Translations under genes and position numbers: made by a program
Shown here: positions 17,948 through 33,694 of the stretch, piece by piece
How positions within the stretch are numbered: the first letter of the stretch is position 1
Layout: each line of letters starts with the position of its first letter
DNA from: a virus
Lineage: Duplodnaviria; Heunggongvirae; Uroviricota; Caudoviricetes
Direction: 5' to 3' (one strand)
Virus record (IMG/VR): IMGVR_UViG_3300049919_000267
Location: 1 to 38,378 of that record
Length of the DNA: 38,378 bases
The notes under the pieces: model-generated
Seen by the model: only the letters and a program-made list of their open reading frames with translations
Databases searched by the model: none
Told to the model about the DNA's origin: nothing

Positions 17948-18445
17948 TTATTTTATAGTTACATAACCTTGTGGGTCAACATAATTTCTTTGTCTTAAAG
18001 CTAACAAATCTCTCCAACCATAACCGAAAGATTTTTCAAGATGAGGATTATCAACAATTGATTTCCATCTTCCTCCCCAAGTCCAACCAGCCTTTTCAAA
18101 TACAGAAACTACTTCAGACCAATCTTTTTGTCCATCTCTATCAAAATCTTTAATTAAATCCCAGGAAAGTGTTTCATAAGTACCATTATTATCTTTATCA
18201 TATAAAATAGCAAAGTCAATTGCTAATCCATAATTATGAATAGATTGTCCACCTTTTGCATTAGTTACTTTTGGTCTCTTATTATAAAGAGCATTTTGTT
18301 CTGCAAAAGTTCTTAATCCTTGGACAATTCTTATAGAAATTGTTTTTGGAAAATTATTTTCAATTTGATCTATAAGTCTTTCAACTTCTTGTCTTACTCT
18401 TGGGTGAAGAACACTTACCCGGTCTTTTGATATAATATCTCTCAT
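17948..18445 (-). CDS. Endolysin, peptidase M15 family (L-Ala-D-Glu endopeptidase-like)
   Basis: GLRTFAEQ.ALY, SIHNYGLAIDF (Zn ligands H and D), WGG.W and DNPHLE. Confidence 0.9.
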   Translation of the reverse strand: MRDIISKDRVSVLHPRVRQEVERLIDQIENNFPKTISIRIVQGLRTFAEQNALYNKRPKVTNAKGGQSIHNYGLAIDFAILYDKDNNGTYETLSWDLIKDFDRDGQKDWSEVVSVFEKAGWTWGGRWKSIVDNPHLEKSFGYGWRDLLALRQRNYVDPQGYVTIK

Positions 18446-18462
18446 TTAAAAATTAAGTTTAG

Positions 18463-18590
18463 AAAATAAGATGTCCTGCCCTCAATAATGGGAGCAGGAA
18501 CAGTTTCTCATAGAAACTTATGAAGTTTAAAAGTTGCATATTCAACTTTATAACTCCTATTGGAAATAGAAGAGGATTTCATCTTATTTT
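18463..18590 (-). ncRNA. Candidate structured cis-regulatory RNA (closing stem plus four hairpins) in the endolysin leader
   Basis: An 11-bp perfect closing stem (18463-18473 / 18580-18590) encloses hairpins at 18474-18499, 18502-18518, 18522-18557 and 18554-18572. G-U pairs favour the - strand. Confidence 0.5.
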
Positions 18591-18996
18591 AAGTTAAAAA
18601 CACATTTAATATAATTAAGACAATGAAGAAGAAAATTGATTTTTTCACAGCTCCATAGTCTCCAAAAATCTTATTAAAAATCTTATCAGCCCAAGCAGTT
18701 GATCCAAGAAATTTATAATCTAATCCGGCCCATTTGTTAAAAGCTAAATCAAAAACAGATAATCTTATAAGTATTGTATAAAGAATAATTAAAGATAACT
18801 CAGGGCGTAGATAAACAATTGGCACTATGATTAAGGCATTCAAAGCAACCCCATCTCTATGCCATCTTTGTATTCTTTTTCTTTCTAAATCAGTTATAGG
18901 ATTATCCTTTTCTTTTAGAAGATACGATGAGGCATCTTTCCCGGCAAGAAAAAGAATACAAACTAAAACATATATTTCTGCAAGAAGCATTATCAT
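18589..18996 (-). CDS. Membrane protein of the lysis cassette
   Basis: Hydrophobic segments at the N-terminus, centre and C-terminus. Adjacent to the endolysin. Confidence 0.65.
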   Translation of the reverse strand: MIMLLAEIYVLVCILFLAGKDASSYLLKEKDNPITDLERKRIQRWHRDGVALNALIIVPIVYLRPELSLIILYTILIRLSVFDLAFNKWAGLDYKFLGSTAWADKIFNKIFGDYGAVKKSIFFFIVLIILNVFLT

Positions 18997-19004
18997 TTTG
19001 AATC

Positions 19005-19340
19005 TTATTTACTAATGGTCACCATCAAAATGATAATTATTGTCGCAACAGCAAGAGCAACAGCAAAATAGAATTGGCCAAACTTGTAAATAGGAACATT
19101 CCCTGTATTATCTGTTACAATTGGCTTTCCTCCATCTTTAGGGTAAATAGTAGTTGTTGAATTACTTTTACTACCTAAATAAGCGACTATAAGAAAAATT
19201 AATGATCCAATAGCTGTTAAAGATGGAACAATCCAAAGATTGTCTGCCCATACAGATGTGCCATCTTCAAATTTAGCGCACCCACTTAAAACAAATAAAG
19301 CTACTAATACAATACTTAAAACATTTAATACTTTTTTCAT
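19005..19340 (-). CDS. Putative lipoprotein with two transmembrane segments
   Basis: Lipobox LSGC at Cys21, then TM segments WIVPSLTAIGSLIFLIVAYLG and FYFAVALAVATIIIILMVTI. Confidence 0.65.
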   Translation of the reverse strand: MKKVLNVLSIVLVALFVLSGCAKFEDGTSVWADNLWIVPSLTAIGSLIFLIVAYLGSKSNSTTTIYPKDGGKPIVTDNTGNVPIYKFGQFYFAVALAVATIIIILMVTISK

Positions 19341-19351
19341 TTTTATTGATT

Positions 19352-19681
19352 TTATTTTTTTGAGTTAATTACAATAATAGCATCATGCCATTTTTTAATT
19401 ACTCCTAATAGATATTTATATATTGAGTCTACGATTACCATTCCTAACATACCAATCACAAAAGAGGTAAAGCCTATAAGAGACAGATCCATGTCAGTTT
19501 TAGCTACAATTACCGGAGTAAAATAACCAGAAACTACACCACCTATTACAACTTGTCTGAAGGCTTCCCAAAATTTAGATTTTTTATACATTGACCAGAT
19601 AAACCCACCAATAAATCCATTTAACGCATATTTCCATACTAGACCTAAATCATCCAGAAAGGCAAGAAAGTTATATTTCAT
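19352..19681 (-). CDS. Putative holin with three TM segments
   Basis: Three Gly-rich hydrophobic segments and a basic C-terminus; 109 aa; upstream of the endolysin. Confidence 0.55.
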   Translation of the reverse strand: MKYNFLAFLDDLGLVWKYALNGFIGGFIWSMYKKSKFWEAFRQVVIGGVVSGYFTPVIVAKTDMDLSLIGFTSFVIGMLGMVIVDSIYKYLLGVIKKWHDAIIVINSKK

Positions 19682-20052: not shown

Positions 20053-20083
20053 GGTAATAAAAGTTATGCCAGATGTAGATGGA

Positions 20084-20103
20084 CAAAAATAATCTATATA
20101 GAT
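20084..20103 (-). promoter_or_regulatory. Possible -7 element (TATTTTTG) with an adjacent 12-bp palindrome upstream of the lysis cassette
   Basis: TAnnTTTG at 20091-20084 on -, and ATCTATATAGAT at 20092-20103. No clean -33 TTTG. Confidence 0.35.
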
Positions 20104-20156
20104 GAAAATCAGAATGTTTCTTTAATTATTATAGCTTTTTACAACCTTAATATAGC

Positions 20157-23100: not shown

Positions 23101-24953
23101 GGAGAAGGTAATCCATCAGTGTATTTCATTTTTCTGATAGTATTTTCATCAGCTAAAAATTTAGAACCTGTTTTGTAATCCATAAAAGATACAGCTCCAT
23201 CACTATGTTCAATAATACCATCATTAGAAGTTCCAATACCAAGAGTTTCACTTATCATCATTAACTCAGATGCGATATTATCTCTAAATGCTATATCAGT
23301 GTTATTAAATTCTTCAGAATTAATACCAAGCTGTTCTAACATTCTTTGTACTTCTTTTTCACCAAACCATAAAAGATCATATTCACTTAAATTACTTTCT
23401 TGTCTTAATTTATCTATATCTGCTTGAAAGTGATTTACATCTTGGAATTTAAGATAACCTTCAATCATTTTGTGCATGATTTTTCCTCTAACTCTTGATT
23501 CTTCAAAAGACTTTTTAATTTCCGCTTTTACTTCTTCAAAAGAAAGTGGATTTGGAGATTGGCCGTAAGGAATTTTATCTCCAAGATCTGCATTAGCTTC
23601 TTTAAAAGCCCTAACAGTTAATTTTTCAAGCCATTTTTCAGGGTCAAAAGGAGTCCCATCCCCGGCTTCTGAGAAAGTAGAATGTGTATATTCTGTTAAC
23701 CTGGTAAATTTCTTAAGTGTATTTGTAATAGGATCAATAGTTCCATTTGTATAATATGAAGTATCGGCTGATTCTTGAAGTTTTATATTCTTTTGTTGCT
23801 CTTCAAAAAACTCAATAGTTTTACGACTACCCCATGTTTCTCCTATTACTGAAGCAGTCTGGTCAGCAGTAAATGAACTATCAACTCCTGTAAGATCTAT
23901 TTCATTTTCAAGCTTCATAAGATCTGTAAGATCTTTAATACTCATATTAATATTAAGATCAGCAGGTACAATCTTCTTAGAAGAGTCTTGTATAAGAGTA
24001 TTAATATATTCAGTAATAGTTTTTAAAACAGTAATTAACCATGAATTAAATTTCTTTCTGTCTTCTACACTACCAGGAACTGTACCCTCAAGACCAATTG
24101 CTGTAGTTATTATTTCTGAAATGAATTCAGGAGAGCCTTCTCGAAGGTCTGGACGATTATTGAGTACAAAATCTGATATGCTTTGTCCGTTAAAAGTAAA
24201 TTGTCCAGCTCTGCTTGAGAGATTTGCATATAATTTAGGGTTTTGTTTTCTAATTGCTTCTACAAAAGGATGTGAGAATTCATGAAATACAGTATCTACA
24301 GAGATAACATTAGGATTGATAATAACCTTACCATTTCTAATAGTACCAATTCTATCAAGATTAGGATCAAATTCAAAAGGTATATTAAGCTTTTTACTTA
24401 ATCTTTCAGCAAGCCCATAATTAGAGATTCCTTGAATTTCCGGAGCTACTTCTATTCTTGAAAATTGAAGCTTTTCTTTGTCATTTAGAATAGTAGAAGC
24501 CAAAGGTTCCCCATTCTCATCTACTGCTTTACTTACAATAGGAGCATATTTAGAATTTGTCTTTACATTTGGATAAAGATCTCTTGCAATATTTACTATC
24601 TCTTGTCCAAAAGTTTCAATAGTATGTCTTTTTTCTGCCTGAGAGCTATTAGCTTGCATAGATATTTCAAACAAAGTTCTCTGAGGATTATTAATAAACA
24701 CCTCTTTATAGACACCTTGAATCTTATCAGAAAAACTTAAAGCTTCTGAGATACGTTCCCAGTCCCCAAAAGTTTTTTTAAAAGAGTCAGTATATGCTCT
24801 GGCCCACACTTTTAAAGCTTTATCTTTTCCTTCTTTTGAAGAATCATTTAAAGAATCTGAAATGTCTTTAAATAAGATAGATGGCTTCTTATTTGGAGCA
24901 TAAACTTGTTGAATTTCATTATTCTGATCTCTGGCAATTGTACAAAAACTCAT
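20157..24953 (-). CDS. Giant virion ejection/cargo protein of the crAss-like vRNAP block (zincin motif, PD-(D/E)XK nuclease, C-terminal hydrophobic helices)
   Basis: HEFSH (24270-24284); RGKIMHKMIE...NDGII..MDYKTG (~23166-23500); hydrophobic segment LAIQLVFYGISIAIGLGAFF. Directly downstream of the RNAP gene. Confidence 0.75.
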   Translation of the reverse strand: MSFCTIARDQNNEIQQVYAPNKKPSILFKDISDSLNDSSKEGKDKALKVWARAYTDSFKKTFGDWERISEALSFSDKIQGVYKEVFINNPQRTLFEISMQANSSQAEKRHTIETFGQEIVNIARDLYPNVKTNSKYAPIVSKAVDENGEPLASTILNDKEKLQFSRIEVAPEIQGISNYGLAERLSKKLNIPFEFDPNLDRIGTIRNGKVIINPNVISVDTVFHEFSHPFVEAIRKQNPKLYANLSSRAGQFTFNGQSISDFVLNNRPDLREGSPEFISEIITTAIGLEGTVPGSVEDRKKFNSWLITVLKTITEYINTLIQDSSKKIVPADLNINMSIKDLTDLMKLENEIDLTGVDSSFTADQTASVIGETWGSRKTIEFFEEQQKNIKLQESADTSYYTNGTIDPITNTLKKFTRLTEYTHSTFSEAGDGTPFDPEKWLEKLTVRAFKEANADLGDKIPYGQSPNPLSFEEVKAEIKKSFEESRVRGKIMHKMIEGYLKFQDVNHFQADIDKLRQESNLSEYDLLWFGEKEVQRMLEQLGINSEEFNNTDIAFRDNIASELMMISETLGIGTSNDGIIEHSDGAVSFMDYKTGSKFLADENTIRKMKYTDGLPSPVFDSKLDRAKIELVMRMVIAKMNKPDLKVRDLKIAYISRYYGNQIRNIDVQQFLDFINNNTRITIQELKKQVKKQPELQEQLDQKIKEYQAMKEAKVFDFYNYQGENKIFEQDSDLQTITDPVKKQEWLKNRIANKARMSLLKDGDTGVGKETLRKIKDSVLAILNSFNSTNIGDVQASGTEDISYFSAKTLGLRDQKNSYLQSFSALYETSVDKVQKKMNELLGEQSEFRKADRALYKEYFKNNLQGIGAKTFSYSKGNVKVEKSDQGIFDFMYTWKSIAGEDQRVGAVYTEQDFKDGKITEAQWNYYKISKKIIKELYEGVRTKTAYIDHRGRKVTYGEEYIKNDGYKFKEFNESFLPTIPFQTIEEIVEKNIETKQINPVNIAKEYFLNYKDRYDMAIQNEDRFNIGIPLKYMSQDFLGNDDHSYNVTQSVDVFARHMIQKLELDDVYDIGMSTIAVMQDVTDPNNKDRKNKLKLENAVFALQSHLNQHILGQRRMTLNYFGKKNEVANKRADLILDSIGSFISKNAFWLAPVTASFNGLYGIITNTKEGLIGSLSKRLFGDDNAVTLSHMAEASKISGVRQALNLTKQSVINRQMNEDWDGSYYKDKVNFMSKLFRLSNKNYNYTDNSLMLGVHNRIFSQDNAYVFQGLGEDLSNETLVIASLLAMKVSVKSVDSSGKEVTQYYKKDGKFTTDKNDPNIENMWDAYKLDPKTGEHVYTGPTRFLDKNGEKVDGLSTLETLKIKTYLERMYGAYSPEQRTHLERYGLGRMVMKFRKFQIMNIKENFTLNSHQKYVGEYVQLFNADGSPKLKDGQPLYDWQSEVMKSRFRVLSSLIGSVFNIKGTTSWDKMSLEDKKQFTRLAIQLVFYGISIAIGLGAFFPPEDKDKLYVQRVKRLSEDLSAVSLLDILRGTTTIDSYPTQLFKAVKAIGTFFTSILSDDIVESGPYKGDYKGWNTLEDFIPIYHAFNQTDKLLSGE

Positions 24954-27900
24954 TATTTACAACTTTTTTGTTTTAAAACTTTATTGATTTCTTTCTCTTC
25001 ATTAATTTCAGCAGCTCTGTTATAGGCATCTTCTATTTGAGCAGGTGTCAAATTTTGAGAAGTTGTCACAGGAGCAACCCCCGGAGTAGAATTAATCATT
25101 TTGATTTTTTCATCTATTGAAAGATCTTTCTTTCTAAGTGTTTTTAATACTTCAAAAGGAGCATCAAATTTATTAAATCTTATCTGTTGGTTTTTTGGAA
25201 GAGCTTGTAACTCTAAGGTTACTGTGGTTTTATCTCCTGATATTTGTTTGGACAGAACTTGGAAATTCCTAACTCCAACCCTATCAAGATTACGAGAATC
25301 ATACAAAGATATTTCATTTACTTGATTTATTATGTTTTCTACATTAATTTTTGTCTTTATTTTAGCTCTTACCTGATCATCAGTTAAAAACTTATTTTCT
25401 GGAGCATCTCTAAATGATTGAAACTGTTGTTCTTGAGAAGCTTTTATAGCTTCTTTATTTTCATTTTTTGTCTTATCATTATCAGAACTTGTTATTAAAA
25501 AGCTACTTATTTTTACATCTTTTAATACAACTTTATCAGCAGAGAAATCTACTCCACGTACAGGCACAGCTAATCTTTTTGGATTATAATAGTCCTTGAT
25601 CTTATAGTTGTTAATCAATAAGTTAGGATCAAAAGAATTATTAGTAAGCTTACCATCTACAGTTGCAATTTTTTTATAATAATACAACAAATCCCCAGTT
25701 TCCTTAGACCCTGTAGATCCAACTTTCATGAAAATCTCATATCTATTAAGTTTCTTCCCATCACTAAATGGTTCATTTACAACGAATGATGGGTTTTTCC
25801 TGAATTTTTCAAAGAGATCACTTTCAGCTTGGGCCTCAGATAAATCCTGGTCAACTTCTATATTAGTATTTTCATCAGTTTTTTCTGAAGTTAGTACAGA
25901 AGAACCCTCTTCTTGGTCTTCTTTTTTATCAAGAATACCAGCTTCAAAAAATAAGTCATATATATTACCATTTGGTAAAATACCTGATTGCCATTGTCTT
26001 TTACCAGTGCCTTTTAAAAGACTTCCAAGATTAGGAAGTACAGTTGGGATACTTAAAATAGTATTGATAAATAAGTTTTCTTTAATATCACTTAAAGCAG
26101 ATCTTTCATTACCTTGATTTTCCAAGTTAGAGAAATCTTTATAATACTTATTACCATTATCTGCTACATTCCATAAAATAAGATCTCTTACAAGAGTGTC
26201 AGAAGATCTGAATATCTTTTGAAAATAAATTGGGGGAATAACATTTGTAGCCTTAGTTGAACTAAATTTAAATTTATCTGTGTATAGAGAAGACTTAAGA
26301 ATATTAAATACTATCTCATTCATCTCATTAGTTTCCGGATGAAGAGAAGAAGGTACATCTACCCATCTTCCTTTTTTATCTAATCTTACATAAATACTGT
26401 TTAAATTATTTAATTCATGTACAGCTTGTTCTATTTCAGCTAAATTCTCAGGAGTATTAGTTAATGAACTATTAAAAGTCATAATTCTAACTTTATCTCT
26501 AAAATTAGTATCAACACCAATTCCTTTTAAAAATCTATTATCAGAGTTCTGTTTTTTAATAACAGTTAAAGGTTTAATTCTCCAGTCAGGGTTAATCTGG
26601 GACACTAAAAAATTATTCCCATCATAGTTTTTAGTTGAATCGTAAGCTTCATCCATTTTCATTAGAAATGAATTAAGAAAAGATTTAATTGTCCCAAGTT
26701 GGTATTCTTTATCATCTTTTTTAATAGTAGTAAGCTTCTGTCCCTGGATACCAAGGCTCATAAGATTATTATCTTTATTATAAGAAATGTTTAAACCACT
26801 TGTAAGATAATTAAAAATATTTCTAGAGATAATCTTAAATATATTAAAGGTATTTTTACCTTTTAAATATTTATCAGAAATTGACATATTTTTTACTGTG
26901 TCGAATGTTAAATTCTGATCATTCTCTCCTGTGAACATAGTAGAAGGATCTGAATTATTAGATACAGCCTTAATCATATTATTTACAAGAAACTGAGCTT
27001 GAACTGAATTTTCAGCAAACATTTCAGAAGCAACATCAATTTGAACTTTAATTGATTCCAAAGCCCCTAAAACATTTTCATTATTAGCTAAGTTAACATT
27101 TTTAAAAATTGTCTTAGAAGATTTTAAATCATCTTTAAATCCGTTTTCAGTATACTCAGATTTTTCAGTATAAGTAAGTTTATTAAAAAATTTCTCAATA
27201 TCAATAAACTTATCCATTGCTTTTAATTTATCATAAGCAGACTCTAAATTATAAGGAAGTCCTTGAACAATACTTAAAGCAGCAGAAACATCTGAAACTT
27301 CTTGTCCTATTTTATTAAGAGTTGCTAATTGTTTGATAATCTTAAGTTGAGTCATTAAGTTTTCCTTATAATTAGGATTCTCAGTGTCTTTCATAAGATC
27401 ATTAAAACTTGTTTGGATAAACTTTTCAATATTTTTAGTTTTAATTTCAAATTTATCAAATTCTTCTTGACTAATATTAATATTAAGTTGTTTGAATTTC
27501 TCTAAAATAGCTTCTTCAAGAACACCAAGAGTTTTCATAATAGTAGTAGCATTAGAACTATTAAGTTCTTTAGCTACTGGCTGTAACATTAGCATAGTTG
27601 TCTGATGAAGATTCATCTCAGTAGAAACTGCGGCTAAAAATATTTTAGCTGTATTATTACCAACATTTAATACATTAAGAATTTGTTCTTTAACATGATC
27701 AATAGCTGCGTTAAGAGCTAAAGATCTGATTTCTTGAGTTTTAATATTATCTCTATTAACTAAATTAAGAGTAGTAAACTTTTGGCCATCAATCTCAACT
27801 ATTTCTTTATCTGATAAAGCAAGTTCAATAGAACTACCTTCAGTAAGACCATGAAAAGCATAAGCAAGACCTTTAGAAAAATTAGCTACTAAACCAACTA

Positions 27901-30900
27901 AACCAGCAGCCATGTAAGTCTCTTTATGCACATTTACATGTTGTTCAACTTTATTAATATTTACACTACCAGCTCCTCTTTGTCTTCTTATAAATTCATC
28001 TCTGTCATTAACCCAATCTTCTTTTAAAGATTCATTAACCATTGCTAAAAGATCTTTTTTACCATCTTCTGTCTCAATGTCTACACCCAACTCTTCTGAA
28101 AGTTCTTTTGATATTCTAGTTACTAAATCTTGATCAGCTTCTTCTAAAAATTTATAAAGTATTGGTCTTTCAGGTAGAATATCTTCAACATTATTAGCTT
28201 TATTAATATTAGAAAATACTAAAGCTAATTGAGAATACTCAGAATTTTCTTCGTATCCTTTAACTGGATCAAAGGTAATACCAAAGAAAATATCAGGCGC
28301 ATTCTCTCCTGAATAAGAAATATTATCTAAAACAGCATCTAATATAGTATTACTATAAAGACCTTTTTGAATTGATCTTATAACTTTTAAGTGTTTTGTT
28401 AAATCATCTACTTTAGAAACCAACTCTCTTCTTTCTCTAGACTTAATCATATTCTCAGCCTTGCTAGAAGTAGATTGCTTATCTTTTTCAGTAATATCAT
28501 CTTCTAAAGATAGAATTTTTTCCTCAGTACTCTGTTTTTCACTAATAAGAATAAAATCAAGAGCAAAAATTTCAGTATGTTTATCATCCTGACCAAAACT
28601 TAAAATTCTACCTCCACTATCATATGTTGCTGCTGGAGCAGTATACCCGAATTTTATACCTTTTTGTGCAATAATCTTATTATCTTTTTGAAATCTTGTT
28701 TTATACTCAATTTTATCAGTAATAATTTCTTCTTCAGTCTTATCAACTGTTTTTGGATCTTTATCCTCATCTTTCATTCCAAATACACCATACCTAACAA
28801 CAAATAATTTATCTACGTCAAAGTCAGATCCATGTAATGCTGTAACAGCAGAAGGGATTACTATCACATTATCATGTGATGATGATGGATAATAACCTAT
28901 TACTCTTAAAGGCACAGAAGAATGTAAGTCAGAGGAAGGAATTCTAAATCCAAACATTTTATTATACTCTTCTGAGTTATAATATATTAATTCTCCTTTT
29001 TTAAGTTGATCTGAATACATTTCAGGAAGATAACACTCTGCATACAAAACATTTCCTTTGTCATCAGTTACCATTTCAGGAACTCTCATAGAATTTTCAG
29101 ATAACACTCTATTTGCTTCAAATCCAAATTCTGATTGGAGTACAAAACTTCCACCCGGATGTTTAGGACTTACAGTTTTCTTTGTAAAACTATTAAAGAA
29201 ACTTTGCATTAACTTTTCAGAAAATAAAGGATTATTCATTGAGATATTTGGAATATTAAGAAGCCCTAATATTCTTTCATTGCCTGGAAGATCTAATTTC
29301 TTTTTAAGATCTTCAATAAATTCTTTTTTAGATCTATTATTAGCTTTAAGAGTTTTATCAGTTTTGTCATATGACATCCTGTAATCAAATAAAGTATCAA
29401 ACATACCAGATTTCGCAAACTTACTCAAAGTTCTTGTAATTTGTCTGTTGTTTTTAATAGAAGTTTCTGTTCTATTTAATCCAATTAAATAAGTTAACTG
29501 AGTAAAATGAGAAATAAAACTATCAATATACCTATGTCTAATCGCTTGCTGGATACCATTATATGCTGAATTTAATGTTAAAATAGAAGACTCTTCTAAA
29601 TTAAAATCAAAAGTGCCAGTTTCCTGGTTTTTAACAAACTTAGACATATTTGAAGGCTTAGAACCTTTAATAGCAGATTCAAAACTTGCCTTATGGATCA
29701 TAAATGGATCAACATCCTCCAGAAAATTCTGGTATTCCATATATTCATTAACATCTCTTAATCCATTGTTATCTACAAGTTTATCATAAAGTTCTTTTAT
29801 TCTTGGTTCAATACGAGCCTTATCTTCAGTACTTAAACTCTTTAAATAGCGTTGAAATGTCATAGCAAACCTAAGATCTCTCAAAGTTTTGTTCTTTTTT
29901 ACAACTTCATTTGTGAGTTCAGCAGAAGAAGTCTTTCTATAATCTACACCTCCTTGCTCATTCACTTCAAAATGTACATCTTTAGTAATATTACCAATAT
30001 CTACTGATTTTCCAAAAGATTTTCTTAACATCTGTTTATACTCAGGAAGATCCCAAGATTGAGCATCACCTATCTCCTGCTTTTTATTCTTAAAAAATCT
30101 TTCAAGTAAAGGAATTTTACCTAATTTATGAGTTTGACCATAAAAATTATTAGCAGCAGAAATAACTACATTTCTATAACTACTTTTAATACCATGTTTA
30201 TCATCAATAAGCCCAGTGTCGTTCATCGCATTTACACCAGCTTGTCTTTTAATCTCATCAAGTGGATTTTTATAGTTTTGAGTAGCTCCAGAGCTTAATT
30301 GATTCATAAAGAATCCATTAACATAAGAATTAAAATAATAAACACTTAATGCTTTCTTTAATATAGCTCTTTGAATCTCGAAGTTATCTTCACTCTTCAT
30401 AGATTCTATATCAGTTTTTGCATTAATGCCTATTCCTTTTAATGTACTTATCTCTGAATCACTAAGTTGATAAGATTTTAAATAGGAATTTTTAAGTTTA
30501 TTATACATCTCAGAAAGATCTGTACCAACTAATGTAGCTTTCTCTGTAATAGCAAGATCAGTAAATTGACCTAAAGATGCGTCAAGATTATTGATAATAG
30601 TCTTAGTAAGATTTAATAAAGTTTTGTTGTTTTTATTAATTATAAGTTTACCATTACTAATTTGTCCAAACTCTTTATTAAGAGTGCCGTCAGAGTTAAA
30701 AAAGATATTAATTCCATCTTTTATAAAATGAGTACCCCCTTCCAAACCTGGTAATGTTGATTTTTTAGTATGTTTAACCAGATTTCCTCTTATAGAACCT
30801 CCGGCCAGATAGTTCATATGAGCTTCTTGAATAATCATACTCATAATACTATTTTCAAGTTCTTCTGCTGAGTTAATACCCATTTTAATTACACTTACAT

Positions 30901-33694
30901 TAGGGGCTGACTCTGGTTGAAATTTTTGTTGAAAATAAGATAATCCACTTCTTTCTGTGTTTTTATTACCAACACCTGCTTCAAGTACAGGTAATTGAAA
31001 CATAGCTAAGAAATTTCTATTTATCCAATCTCTCGGAGATTCTTTGCTAAATGGAATAGGTGGTTTTTCATAAAAAGCATCTCTATTATCAAAATAAGTT
31101 TCTTGATGATCTGAATAGAAATCATCTTCTCCTACTTTCAATAAATTTTCATTTACAATTACTTCACCAGTAGAATGATTGTGAGTAAATATAGGATTAT
31201 ATCTAAGATAGTTATTAAAACTATTTTTAAGATATGGCAATAATCTATCTTTATTTATAAGTCCTGTTGCAAAATCTTCTAAGTTTTTAAAGATTTTGTA
31301 GGAAGTATTAGACATAACATTTCCCCATTTCTGCTTATTAGATGTTGAAACAGAAAAAGATGTTGGATTGTTTTTCTCAAAAGTATAATTTGTAAGTAAA
31401 TTAGAAAATTTACTTGTAATTCTTAAATATACATCAGAGTTGGAAAACTCTGTAGAAAGTTTTGTCGTTCTAATATCCGGAACCTGCTCTAAAAGCCTAT
31501 TAAGACTATTTAAAAGAATAGTAACATCTTTATCAGATATTCTTAAAAAATCAGGTTCAGTTATAGCAGACAGTTTATTTACAACAATATTATGAAGAAG
31601 ATTTCTTAATTGTTTTTTATCTCCTTTATCTTTAACAGACTTATAAGTATCCATTAAAGAGACAACATCTTTACGAATTGAAGTAGCTTCAAGTCTATCT
31701 CTCACATCTGAAGCAAGAGAAGTTGAATTTTTATATTCAGTTACTTTATCAATAAAAGCATAAGAAGTAAATTCTCCAGATAAATTTAAATCTGGGTCAT
31801 TTATTCTTTGAGTAGAAACTCTTACAAACTTAGGAGATAATCTTCTTAAACTATTAGCTACCTTAGTTAATTCAGCTACTTGATTTCTTTGTTCATTATA
31901 CTGGAATAATTTAGAAATGATAAAATTTGGAATGCCAGTTATTTTAGAAACTCTTTCAATAAAAGTTTTATTAGACTCTCCTTCTTCTTGTCTAAGTAAA
32001 AAACTTATTTCTCCTTCTTTTACTCTATTAAAAGTAAATACAACTCTATTATCATCAGAATTTGTTCCTTGGTTTTCAATTTTTATATTCTCTGGTATAA
32101 TAATATTTAATACTCCTTTAAAATCTTCGTTAGGAATATTAAATTCAGAAAGGCTTTGTTTTAATGAAGTTAAATCTGCATCAGAAACTCCTTTTATATT
32201 TAAGGAGATTCTATTACTTGCAATTACAGATTCATGTAATTGTTTTACTTTATTAAAAACAGCCTTACTTTGATTTCCTATTGGCTTATAATTATCCTTT
32301 ATTTGTTTTAAATTCTCTTCAAGAGAAGTGCTTCCATAAAGACTATTAAGCATATTAAGTAAAGCAATAAATCCGGCCCCAGGATCTATATTAACAAAGT
32401 TCCCAGGAGTTGTTTCATAGGTAATAGAGCTTAAAAAATCTTTTACAACTTCAGAGATCTTTGTTGTAGGATTAATTAACTCTTTTGAGCCTATTTCTAG
32501 GCTATTGTAGTCTTCGTCAGACTCCAGCAAAATTTCAGTAGGATCTCTCTCTATTTGGTTTTTAAGAACTAATTCACCATCTTTACCAACTTCAGCTAAA
32601 GAGTATGGTTGTAAATAATCATACATAGCTTTAAGGACTCCCTTAGTTGTAAGAGCATCAATAACTTTACTTAACTGAGGATCTAATGTTTGAGAATCTT
32701 TAATAGCTTTAATTCTACTTTGAAGTTTCTTTAAAGCATCAGCTTTTGATAATCCCAACTTAAATACTTCCTTATTGTTTTGAAATAATGGAGATCTGTA
32801 ATTAATATCTAAAAATAAAGATGCGTTTGCTGTTTCAGATAAATTTTTATTATCTGAAGGAAACATAAGTTCATTTAAATTATTCAGTACAAAAGCTTTA
32901 GCTTGTAAAAATAAATCAAGATCTGTACTAAAAATAGTGTATGATAAAATACTTTTATCTCTGGTTACTAATGAGTCTTTTATATAATTTCTAGTAAATT
33001 TCCCATTATTTACATCATCAAATAATTTAATAATATCATTATAGTTATCCCCGATAAATCCTAAGAATTTAAGCACTTTTTGGAAAAAATCTCTTATTAA
33101 AATAGGAAGGACTTTACTTTTTTCAGATTTATAAGTTTCAAATTCATCAGCCATTCTTTCTTCTAATTCTTCCTTATCTTGAATAGAAGAATATTTAGGT
33201 TTCCATCTTTTAAAGGATAACATAATATCTTCTTGCTCACTTTCGGATAGGAAGTTATTAAAAATAACATGGAATACTTCATGTCTTACATCAGTATAAG
33301 CTTTTTCTCCTCTTTCTTCAGAGATAGAGTTAGCAATATATACTGTATCTTTTATAAAACTTGATAATACTTGTTTACCATTTCTAAGCCTCATTAATTC
33401 AAGCTTATCCACGAATTTTACTCTTTCTTCAATATCCTTATCAGACATAGAAGGTAAAAGAGATCTAAACATAGATTTTACTTCTCCATAAAATTCTTGA
33501 TAATCTACCCCAGATTTATTGGTATTGTAAAGATCTGACATTAAGGTTTTTAATGTAATAAAATCAGGCAATGTTGTTGTATTATTATCAGTCATATATT
33601 TACTGATAACAGCTTTGGCAACAAATTTCTGTCTTTTATCTAATCCTTTTACCAGATCTTTATAATCTTGGGAATTAATATTTACACAACTCAT
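24953..33694 (-). CDS. Virion-packaged DNA-dependent RNA polymerase (crAss-like), with an N-terminal zincin motif
   Basis: Catalytic DFDVD (28811-28825), the DFDxD variant of crAss-like RNAPs, preceded by FRIPS; GDAQ and SAIKGSK in the second barrel; HEVFH (33269-33283) with downstream EERMADEF; 2913 aa. Confidence 0.9.
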   Translation of the reverse strand: MSCVNINSQDYKDLVKGLDKRQKFVAKAVISKYMTDNNTTTLPDFITLKTLMSDLYNTNKSGVDYQEFYGEVKSMFRSLLPSMSDKDIEERVKFVDKLELMRLRNGKQVLSSFIKDTVYIANSISEERGEKAYTDVRHEVFHVIFNNFLSESEQEDIMLSFKRWKPKYSSIQDKEELEERMADEFETYKSEKSKVLPILIRDFFQKVLKFLGFIGDNYNDIIKLFDDVNNGKFTRNYIKDSLVTRDKSILSYTIFSTDLDLFLQAKAFVLNNLNELMFPSDNKNLSETANASLFLDINYRSPLFQNNKEVFKLGLSKADALKKLQSRIKAIKDSQTLDPQLSKVIDALTTKGVLKAMYDYLQPYSLAEVGKDGELVLKNQIERDPTEILLESDEDYNSLEIGSKELINPTTKISEVVKDFLSSITYETTPGNFVNIDPGAGFIALLNMLNSLYGSTSLEENLKQIKDNYKPIGNQSKAVFNKVKQLHESVIASNRISLNIKGVSDADLTSLKQSLSEFNIPNEDFKGVLNIIIPENIKIENQGTNSDDNRVVFTFNRVKEGEISFLLRQEEGESNKTFIERVSKITGIPNFIISKLFQYNEQRNQVAELTKVANSLRRLSPKFVRVSTQRINDPDLNLSGEFTSYAFIDKVTEYKNSTSLASDVRDRLEATSIRKDVVSLMDTYKSVKDKGDKKQLRNLLHNIVVNKLSAITEPDFLRISDKDVTILLNSLNRLLEQVPDIRTTKLSTEFSNSDVYLRITSKFSNLLTNYTFEKNNPTSFSVSTSNKQKWGNVMSNTSYKIFKNLEDFATGLINKDRLLPYLKNSFNNYLRYNPIFTHNHSTGEVIVNENLLKVGEDDFYSDHQETYFDNRDAFYEKPPIPFSKESPRDWINRNFLAMFQLPVLEAGVGNKNTERSGLSYFQQKFQPESAPNVSVIKMGINSAEELENSIMSMIIQEAHMNYLAGGSIRGNLVKHTKKSTLPGLEGGTHFIKDGINIFFNSDGTLNKEFGQISNGKLIINKNNKTLLNLTKTIINNLDASLGQFTDLAITEKATLVGTDLSEMYNKLKNSYLKSYQLSDSEISTLKGIGINAKTDIESMKSEDNFEIQRAILKKALSVYYFNSYVNGFFMNQLSSGATQNYKNPLDEIKRQAGVNAMNDTGLIDDKHGIKSSYRNVVISAANNFYGQTHKLGKIPLLERFFKNKKQEIGDAQSWDLPEYKQMLRKSFGKSVDIGNITKDVHFEVNEQGGVDYRKTSSAELTNEVVKKNKTLRDLRFAMTFQRYLKSLSTEDKARIEPRIKELYDKLVDNNGLRDVNEYMEYQNFLEDVDPFMIHKASFESAIKGSKPSNMSKFVKNQETGTFDFNLEESSILTLNSAYNGIQQAIRHRYIDSFISHFTQLTYLIGLNRTETSIKNNRQITRTLSKFAKSGMFDTLFDYRMSYDKTDKTLKANNRSKKEFIEDLKKKLDLPGNERILGLLNIPNISMNNPLFSEKLMQSFFNSFTKKTVSPKHPGGSFVLQSEFGFEANRVLSENSMRVPEMVTDDKGNVLYAECYLPEMYSDQLKKGELIYYNSEEYNKMFGFRIPSSDLHSSVPLRVIGYYPSSSHDNVIVIPSAVTALHGSDFDVDKLFVVRYGVFGMKDEDKDPKTVDKTEEEIITDKIEYKTRFQKDNKIIAQKGIKFGYTAPAATYDSGGRILSFGQDDKHTEIFALDFILISEKQSTEEKILSLEDDITEKDKQSTSSKAENMIKSRERRELVSKVDDLTKHLKVIRSIQKGLYSNTILDAVLDNISYSGENAPDIFFGITFDPVKGYEENSEYSQLALVFSNINKANNVEDILPERPILYKFLEEADQDLVTRISKELSEELGVDIETEDGKKDLLAMVNESLKEDWVNDRDEFIRRQRGAGSVNINKVEQHVNVHKETYMAAGLVGLVANFSKGLAYAFHGLTEGSSIELALSDKEIVEIDGQKFTTLNLVNRDNIKTQEIRSLALNAAIDHVKEQILNVLNVGNNTAKIFLAAVSTEMNLHQTTMLMLQPVAKELNSSNATTIMKTLGVLEEAILEKFKQLNINISQEEFDKFEIKTKNIEKFIQTSFNDLMKDTENPNYKENLMTQLKIIKQLATLNKIGQEVSDVSAALSIVQGLPYNLESAYDKLKAMDKFIDIEKFFNKLTYTEKSEYTENGFKDDLKSSKTIFKNVNLANNENVLGALESIKVQIDVASEMFAENSVQAQFLVNNMIKAVSNNSDPSTMFTGENDQNLTFDTVKNMSISDKYLKGKNTFNIFKIISRNIFNYLTSGLNISYNKDNNLMSLGIQGQKLTTIKKDDKEYQLGTIKSFLNSFLMKMDEAYDSTKNYDGNNFLVSQINPDWRIKPLTVIKKQNSDNRFLKGIGVDTNFRDKVRIMTFNSSLTNTPENLAEIEQAVHELNNLNSIYVRLDKKGRWVDVPSSLHPETNEMNEIVFNILKSSLYTDKFKFSSTKATNVIPPIYFQKIFRSSDTLVRDLILWNVADNGNKYYKDFSNLENQGNERSALSDIKENLFINTILSIPTVLPNLGSLLKGTGKRQWQSGILPNGNIYDLFFEAGILDKKEDQEEGSSVLTSEKTDENTNIEVDQDLSEAQAESDLFEKFRKNPSFVVNEPFSDGKKLNRYEIFMKVGSTGSKETGDLLYYYKKIATVDGKLTNNSFDPNLLINNYKIKDYYNPKRLAVPVRGVDFSADKVVLKDVKISSFLITSSDNDKTKNENKEAIKASQEQQFQSFRDAPENKFLTDDQVRAKIKTKINVENIINQVNEISLYDSRNLDRVGVRNFQVLSKQISGDKTTVTLELQALPKNQQIRFNKFDAPFEVLKTLRKKDLSIDEKIKMINSTPGVAPVTTSQNLTPAQIEDAYNRAAEINEEKEINKVLKQKSCK

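Follow-up and report, generated by a model that had tools for sequence, protein, structure and literature searches.

The gap directly upstream of the endolysin gene in an uncultured freshwater phage contains, as judged from predicted folds and covariation, a genuine RNA element, and this element recurs in 16 lineages of related phages. Its fold is conserved, two of its hairpins (P2 and P3) covary, a U tail follows P3, and a short open reading frame (sORF) is kept open through most of it, with its stop placed close to P3 or inside it. We read these features, tentatively and with a probability of roughly 45%, as a cis-acting intercistronic translation-gated attenuator that lies between the holin-side and the spanin/endolysin genes in a clade of uncultured crAss-like (Bacteroidota-infecting) phages. 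The element probably meters the transcription and translation that pass into the downstream lysis genes. An earlier note on this DNA had recognized a multi-stem RNA in the gap; it missed both the terminator-like nature of the last hairpin with its U tail and the conserved short frame.

The stretch analysed, called the window here (38,378 nt), makes up the first 38 kb of an IMG/VR virus record that is 102 kb long, 88% complete and derived from freshwater metagenomes. Three giant ORFs lie upstream of the element on the same strand. One of them, a 2913-aa ORF (24953-33694, minus strand) with no match in a PHROG search, carries at residue 1624 the sequence DFDVD, which is given as the catalytic motif of crAss-like virion RNA polymerases in a preprint (bioRxiv 10.1101/2020.03.07.982082). 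The crAss-like assignment of the phage fits this motif, to judge from the predicted protein. Small membrane-protein genes occupy the space between the giant ORFs and the gene that borders the element. A 109-aa ORF (19352-19681, minus strand) is holin-like (PHROG family phrog_2359, 4e-7), and a 111-aa ORF (19005-19340, minus strand) starts with a lipoprotein-type signal (…LSGC); it may serve as a spanin-like component in the outer membrane. The gene that anchors the element on its upstream side (18589-18996, minus strand) encodes a 135-aa multi-pass membrane protein for which Pfam, PHROG and Atlas searches name no family; the gene has no GenBank phage match, and the 247 relatives of the protein at E<=1e-10 are every one unnamed. 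On the downstream side lies the 165-aa endolysin (17948-18445, minus strand), a Peptidase_M15_4 or VanY-type L-alanyl-D-glutamate peptidase (Pfam PF13539, 5e-17). It has annotated phage homologues and is 63% identical to the endolysin of one relative, L152, and it alone finds a DNA-level match in GenBank phages. The two genes are 143 nt apart. Another gap of the same operon (20053-20156, 104 nt) is unstructured (z +1.46), so the structure signal is specific to the gap at 18463-18590. The counterpart of that unstructured gap in another relative, after the ~1600-aa gene, holds a second good terminator-like hairpin (L166:455-475).

On the minus, coding strand the segment 18463-18590 has a predicted lowest-energy fold of -40.4 kcal/mol, compared with -20.6 +/- 3.1 kcal/mol for 200 dinucleotide shuffles (z -6.34), none of which (0/200) folds as well. 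The shuffled controls that the earlier note had proposed are thus clearly beaten, and all the stems it listed are found on the minus strand where it had placed them. The plus strand of the same segment gives z -4.39. The lowest-energy fold consists of an 11-bp closing stem, P2, a 7-bp hairpin 3 and the GC-based P3. In the closing stem AAAATAAGATG (18590-18580, minus strand), which begins at the second base of the upstream TAA stop (18591-18589), is perfectly paired with CATCTTATTTT (18473-18463), which ends 17 nt upstream of the endolysin ATG at 18445. As RNA, the 5' arm AAAAUAAGAUG (18580-18590) overlaps the upstream stop codon and the sORF AUG, the 3' arm CAUCUUAUUUU (18463-18473) is the degenerate U-rich tail of P3, and the duplex has a predicted energy of -10.7 kcal/mol. 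P2 (18522-18557), the conserved core of the family, is a two-tier hairpin with GGAGUU/AACUUC around AAAGUUG/CAACUUU and an AUG in the loop. Hairpin 3, AGUUUCU AUG AGAAACU (18502-18518), contains the sORF stop codon. P3 (18475-18498) has a GC-rich base, CCUGCUCC...GGGCAGG, at -11.9 kcal/mol, and is the homologue of the terminator-like hairpin of the relatives. The 17-nt A/U-rich spacer that remains (18446-18462) is unpaired in the predicted fold.

One further stem described in the earlier note, its hairpin 1, pairs CTTCTATT (18572-18565) with AATAGGAG (18561-18554), or CUUCUAUU with AAUAGGAG in the RNA (18554-18572), and so competes with the base of P2. It is absent from the lowest-energy fold and survives as a near-isoenergetic alternative: enforcing it gives -39.4 kcal/mol, against -40.4 kcal/mol for the optimum, in agreement with the suggestion that GGAG is common to hairpins 1 and 2.

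Relatives of this locus were found by protein-anchored searches of IMG/VR, JGI and ENA metagenomes and Logan assemblies, as well as in one MAG labelled Chitinophagales. Each time, in all 16 lineages of uncultured phage contigs, the element lies directly 3' of the 135-aa orthologue, within a constant gene order: a ~1600-aa gene, three small genes, the 135-aa gene, the element, a 225-aa gene and an endolysin (M15 or lysozyme). The 225-aa product is a transmembrane/coiled-coil, spanin-like protein that PHROG, Pfam and Atlas searches leave unnamed, and its gene stands between element and endolysin in every sampled relative. Comparison with L151, L152, L153 and L122 found no homologue of it in the 102-kb record (88% complete), and the direct contact of element and endolysin is therefore peculiar to this phage. 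Thus the placement at the endolysin, central to the earlier note, holds here, whereas in 15 of the 16 lineages the 225-aa spanin-like gene comes next. In remoter relatives that lack the element the two genes overlap, which makes the element an insertion between otherwise translationally coupled genes.

A covariance model built from the 16 relatives, with the window left out, recovers exactly 18443-18591 on the minus strand (30.2 bits, E 0.006-0.012), and a P2-only model (R2) that includes the window's own copy scores the window site at 34.9 bits. No second copy appears in the 102-kb genome (BLAST, models R1 and R2) or in the loci of the relatives, and no repeat family covers the element. An exact pattern scan of IMG/VR for the P2 motif returns 30 matches, 28 of which are chance occurrences in unrelated coding DNA. 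Rfam cmscan, another check proposed in the earlier note, matches the element to nothing: the best score is 19 bits, against gathering scores of 45-170 (window at E<=10, six relatives at the gathering score).

Some observations from the same searches stand apart. A remoter relative (L164, L165), whose anchor protein is 61% identical, shows a rearrangement of the cassette that places the M15 endolysin upstream of a 134-aa gene, and the 76-nt gap 3' of that gene (L164:1906-1980) is unrelated to the element. The contig labelled as a Chitinophagales MAG has a second gap, of 162 nt, after the endolysin (L178:1542-1703), where the element model gives a weak score (22.7 bits, E 0.012); with its GGUACAA…UUGUACC hairpin, this gap may be a further structured spacer. 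Among contigs of four freshwater DNA runs aligned to 18300-18750, those that span the element are identical and so add no covariation. None of the sequencing runs listed with the sequence is an RNA run, which has no bearing on whether the element is expressed. The unitigs of four independent freshwater runs all break in the A/T-rich spacer at 18433-18460, before the endolysin start, which may reflect strain variation or low complexity.

In a comparison across related phages, which the earlier note had proposed, the gap is conserved and covaries. In the covariance-model alignment 87% of the cells are paired, against 35-50% when partners are slid, both sides have changed in 20 of the 24 pairs, and the covariation score is 0.514 compared with 0.268 +/- 0.019 in shuffles. 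P2 taken alone in a plain MAFFT alignment behaves the same way (88.5% of cells paired versus 38-58% slid; both sides changed in 8 of 11 pairs), as does the P3 helix, where 7 of 8 pairs have changed on both sides, and RNAalifold predicts P2 and P3 unaided from plain MAFFT alignments. The stem of P2 reads, for example, AAGC/GCUU, GAAU/AUUC or AGAC/GUCU in different lineages. Sequence is also conserved in P2 around these changing pairs: AAUAGAGGGA marks the 5' foot, CCUC the 3' foot, and the loop, usually of 7 nt, has an AUG that does not vary. The loops of the element read AUGAAA(A) and nnAUGAA. Cells with G.U outnumber those with A.C (38 versus 14), and the U tail lies 3' of P3 on the gene strand only, which together point to selection on the sense RNA. 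The earlier note had argued for a coding-strand, RNA-level element from three G.U pairs, and the family bears this out.

The sORF of the window (18508-18582, minus strand) begins with AUGAAA 6 nt past the upstream stop, runs for 24 codons and ends at a UGA 12 nt before P3. An equivalent frame is present in 16 of 16 lineages, with lengths of 12-43 codons. In all of them AUGAAA (AUGCAA in one lineage) lies 2-21 nt past the upstream stop, and in most its AUG is unpaired in local folds. Counted from this AUG to a point 9 nt short of P3, its own frame has 4 stops, and the other two have 40 and 36. In 13 of 15 lineages the AUG frame stays open as far as the end of P2, and in 8 no other frame does. 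Indels and phase define at least 4-8 independent frame configurations, and the significance of the open frame, inflated as it is by shared ancestry, comes to a conservative p of ~0.005-0.01. The lineage whose spacer would set the UAG of AAUAG in frame has CAAGG instead. The stop of the sORF falls 9-12 nt before P3 in seven lineages, inside or beyond P3 in six, and 18-19 nt before it in three.

What is kept is the frame and not the peptide, whose sole common residues are the MK at its start. The conserved nucleotide motifs fall in different phases across lineages, compensatory changes in the stems lead to radical amino-acid changes, and no regulatory codons of the trp/his type are conserved in the sORF. 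Within the closest sub-clade the peptides resemble each other. Two other coding arrangements were considered and rejected: a second frame from the AUG of the P2 loop, which has 3-31 codons and is not conserved, and a read-through extension of the 135-aa protein, since across lineages the phase of the sORF with respect to the upstream gene takes all three values.

The other end of the element looks like an intrinsic terminator, in so far as predicted folds can show it. P3 has energies of -8.6 to -15.4 kcal/mol in the 16 lineages and a conserved CCU/AGG base, and in the relatives 5-7 of the 9 nt that follow it are U. In the loci of L122, L153 and L166 it is the top terminator-like site, with 8-12 pairs. 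The window's copy is looser: its tail, ACAUCUUAU, has 4 U in 9, its P3 has a long loop and a looser apical part, and a terminator pattern scan of the window does not call it, so that the P3 of this phage may terminate poorly. This weaker U tract nevertheless forms the closing stem. The distance from P3 to the next AUG is 25-37 nt, and the Bacteroidota -7 box TAnnTTTG is not conserved before or after the element; given this spacing and the lack of a conserved box, the downstream genes most simply need read-through. A TATAAA-like box 10-13 nt past P3 recurs in many lineages. In phi14:2, the one crAss-like phage studied in this respect, host RNAP transcribes the middle and late genes, according to the same preprint (bioRxiv 10.1101/2020.03.07.982082).

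The remaining parts vary. Measured against shuffled 5' segments, the closing stem reaches z -4.8 in the window and z -3.6 and -5.2 in L130/L145; in other lineages pairing between the A-rich 5' end and the U tail does not exceed that of shuffles. As a family feature it is rejected, being significant only in the window and in the one lineage L130/L145, and what the earlier note had taken as the boundary of a 128-nt unit becomes a lineage-specific trait. Hairpin 3 is found in the window and L152 only. A 5' hairpin, P1, was considered as a conserved helix and rejected; it is 71% paired, and it shifts relative to AUGAAA or is missing.

The first sORF codons contain a pyrimidine block whose sequence complements the GAGG block (mean z -1.5; seven lineages score -2 or lower), and the two partners change together in the window, L152, L161, L124 and L178. 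The base of P2 can thus probably toggle between two partners. A search for an antiterminator pairing the P2 halves with the P3 arms found nothing better than shuffles (mean z -0.68, +0.39 and +0.01). The sole alternative helix with support is in competition with the base of P2 rather than with P3.

How could such an element work? As a translation-gated attenuator, it would confront host RNA polymerase on the long late operon with P3 and its U tail, a signal of the intrinsic-terminator type, and the genes beyond (spanin-like gene and endolysin in the relatives, endolysin directly in the window phage) would depend on read-through. A ribosome would reinitiate at the exposed AUGAAA, or be loaded on it, and would then translate through P2 and melt it. 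On stopping at the foot of P3 or inside it, this ribosome would occlude or invade the base of P3, and termination would be weakened. Read-through would in this way be contingent on translation of the upstream holin-side membrane-protein genes. The competing helices, in which GAGG pairs with the upstream pyrimidine block or with the downstream CCUC, would tune the ease of gating. In the window phage, the 11-bp helix would in addition keep the sORF AUG and the U tail hidden, until it is opened by a ribosome that completes the 135-aa gene. Termination at P3, translation of the sORF and the interplay of the two are steps that we infer. In E. coli, a ribosome that stops a few bases before an intrinsic terminator almost abolishes termination (Li et al. 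2016, PMC4824070).

Several observations weigh against the attenuator. In the three lineages with a stop 18-19 nt before P3, the ribosome would be too far away for contact. No classical antiterminator helix was found, regulatory codons are not conserved, and neither is the peptide. The window itself has a weak U tract (ACAUCUUAU) and a long P3 loop. Also, the conserved base and loop of P2, needless for purely ribosome-driven gating, hint at a trans-acting partner. An extended version, a 'lysis gate', would combine a GAGG switch (with either pyrimidine block), a P2 loop bound by a phage or host factor, and a relay ORF as readout, to decide the passage of RNA polymerase into the spanin and endolysin genes; in this full form we think it rather unlikely.

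Could P3 be a plain end-of-transcript signal? P3 would then be an ordinary terminator or 3'-end protector, P2 and the other hairpins would be stabilisers or a 'hairpin cluster', the frame would be incidental, and the hairpins would set differential stability or stoichiometry of the upstream and downstream halves of the cassette. We find this somewhat unlikely: the AUG frame is strongly depleted of stops, and AUGAAA is kept (AUGCAA in one lineage) and exposed. The conserved unpaired positions of P2 also exceed what a stabiliser needs. In a sub-variant, the terminator would be overlapped by a phage-specific late promoter, as it is in Pm of phage Mu. The recurrent TATAAA-like box speaks for such a promoter, but the 25-37 nt past P3 are too short for a full promoter and leader, and no TAnnTTTG box is conserved. 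A plain terminator does agree with P3 and its U tail being the best-supported functional feature of the element, and with the finding of no antiterminator helix. However, in the relatives without the element the two genes overlap, and efficient termination would separate genes whose expression is normally joint. Hairpin clusters behind stop codons are a proposed kind of terminator in many bacteria (PMC8355165), and the element resembles them in having several adjoining hairpins directly after a stop codon. Unlike in those clusters, the U tail is on the last hairpin only, and P2 has conserved sequence features and is part of a frame that is kept open.

A protein-binding operator or nut-like antitermination site is unlikely, although P2 has the signature of a recognition hairpin, with covarying stems, an internal loop, and a terminal loop and GAGG/CCUC base that are conserved. 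A phage or host protein would bind P2 and the exposed AUGAAA, and passage through P3 or translational repression would time the lysis genes. Two AUGAA motifs ~40 nt apart, present in most lineages, would suit such a protein, and the order of gene stop, conserved hairpin or hairpins, terminator and next genes parallels that of lambda cro-nutR-tR1. However, no candidate binding protein has been identified, one copy per genome makes no regulon, the loops are unlike boxB GNRA pentaloops, and the position of P1 is not conserved. In the lambdoid pR'-tR' region (6S RNA), lysis requires read-through of tR', which stands directly upstream of the lysis genes. The element shares with this region a terminator before lysis genes, but it differs from the lambda and lambdoid systems: it lacks sequences like boxA or boxB, no N- or Q-like factor is known for it, it does not begin with a promoter, and the hosts are Bacteroidota.

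It is highly unlikely that the element is a stand-alone gene, whether for a small regulatory RNA that ends at P3, as the earlier note had entertained, or for a protein of 12-43 residues. A terminator would close such a unit, the frame is kept open, and the peptides of the closest sub-clade are alike. No conserved promoter box of the Bacteroidota type lies upstream. The peptides differ widely in length and sequence, the conserved nucleotide motifs fall in different frames, the compensatory stem changes produce non-conservative amino-acid substitutions, and the hydrophobicity typical of known small lysis proteins is missing.

The two remaining alternatives have a very small probability each. A metabolite-sensing riboswitch or self-cleaving ribozyme, both raised in the earlier note, has in its favour the multi-stem fold with a terminator-type expression platform behind it, and finds no further backing: no Rfam family comes near threshold for the window and six relatives (best 19 bits against 45-170), conserved unpaired stretches are limited to the AAUAGAGGGA block, the loops with AUG and the tail, neither a junction nor a pseudoknot is conserved, the structure of the 5' third varies, and the site lies between lysis genes and not upstream of a metabolic or transport gene. 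A DNA-level element (a MITE, a REP-like repeat, or a protein-binding, recombination or origin site made of inverted repeats), which the 11-bp terminal inverted repeats around a ~128-bp unit in the window and the good folding of the plus strand (z -4.4) would allow, is contradicted by its single copy in the 102-kb genome and in every locus, its orthologous position across diverged phages, the lack of terminal repeats in most relatives, the excess of G.U over A.C (38 versus 14) and the covariation of the stems.

The favoured reading, translation-gated attenuation, has its closest parallels among known attenuators. In E. coli pyrBI, a translation-coupled attenuator, the leader frame reaches or crosses the terminator. 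Like pyrBI and the arrangement of Li et al. 2016 (PMC4824070), the element has a short frame upstream of a U-tailed hairpin, a stop just before the hairpin or inside it, a peptide whose sequence is unimportant, and downstream genes reached via read-through. Whereas pyrBI has its leader at the 5' end of a biosynthetic operon, the element is intercistronic in a phage late/lysis operon; it also lacks a pause that senses nucleotides, it includes the extra conserved hairpin P2, and it is known from sequence alone. With the trp and his leader attenuators and the predicted Bacteroid-trp motif it shares a leader frame, a terminator and mutually exclusive helices; in contrast to them, it has no run of regulatory codons, no antiterminator shown over the 5' arm of P3 and no match to an Rfam leader family.

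The leader of T4 gene e, to which the earlier note had likened the element, also places RNA structure upstream of a phage endolysin gene. There, a hairpin in early transcripts sequesters the ribosome-binding site of e itself, and is proposed to delay expression. The analogy fails, as the start region of the endolysin is free of helices: in the fold predicted for 18446-18592 the last 17 nt and the endolysin AUG are unpaired, as is the start of the next gene in the relatives, the closing stem ends 17 nt upstream, and the next gene of the relatives is not the endolysin. The element belongs neither to the pyrBI-type attenuators nor to the lambdoid systems with a terminator before lysis genes, though these are the two it is most like.

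As a family of sequence and structure the element is undescribed, and as a device it is a variation on the attenuator/terminator theme; it would add a new family to the cis-regulatory RNAs of phages. To our knowledge, almost nothing is known about lysis timing in crAss-like and other Bacteroidota phages, or about gene regulation past transcription initiation in hosts that do without Shine-Dalgarno sequences. A compact object of ~130 nt placed exactly between the holin-side and the spanin/endolysin genes offers a handle on lysis timing. If it is only a decorated terminator, it still helps to annotate operon boundaries in uncultured phage genomes. If the 'lysis gate' is true, it would be an undescribed RNA-based lysis timer in Bacteroidota phages, which lack Shine-Dalgarno-dependent control.
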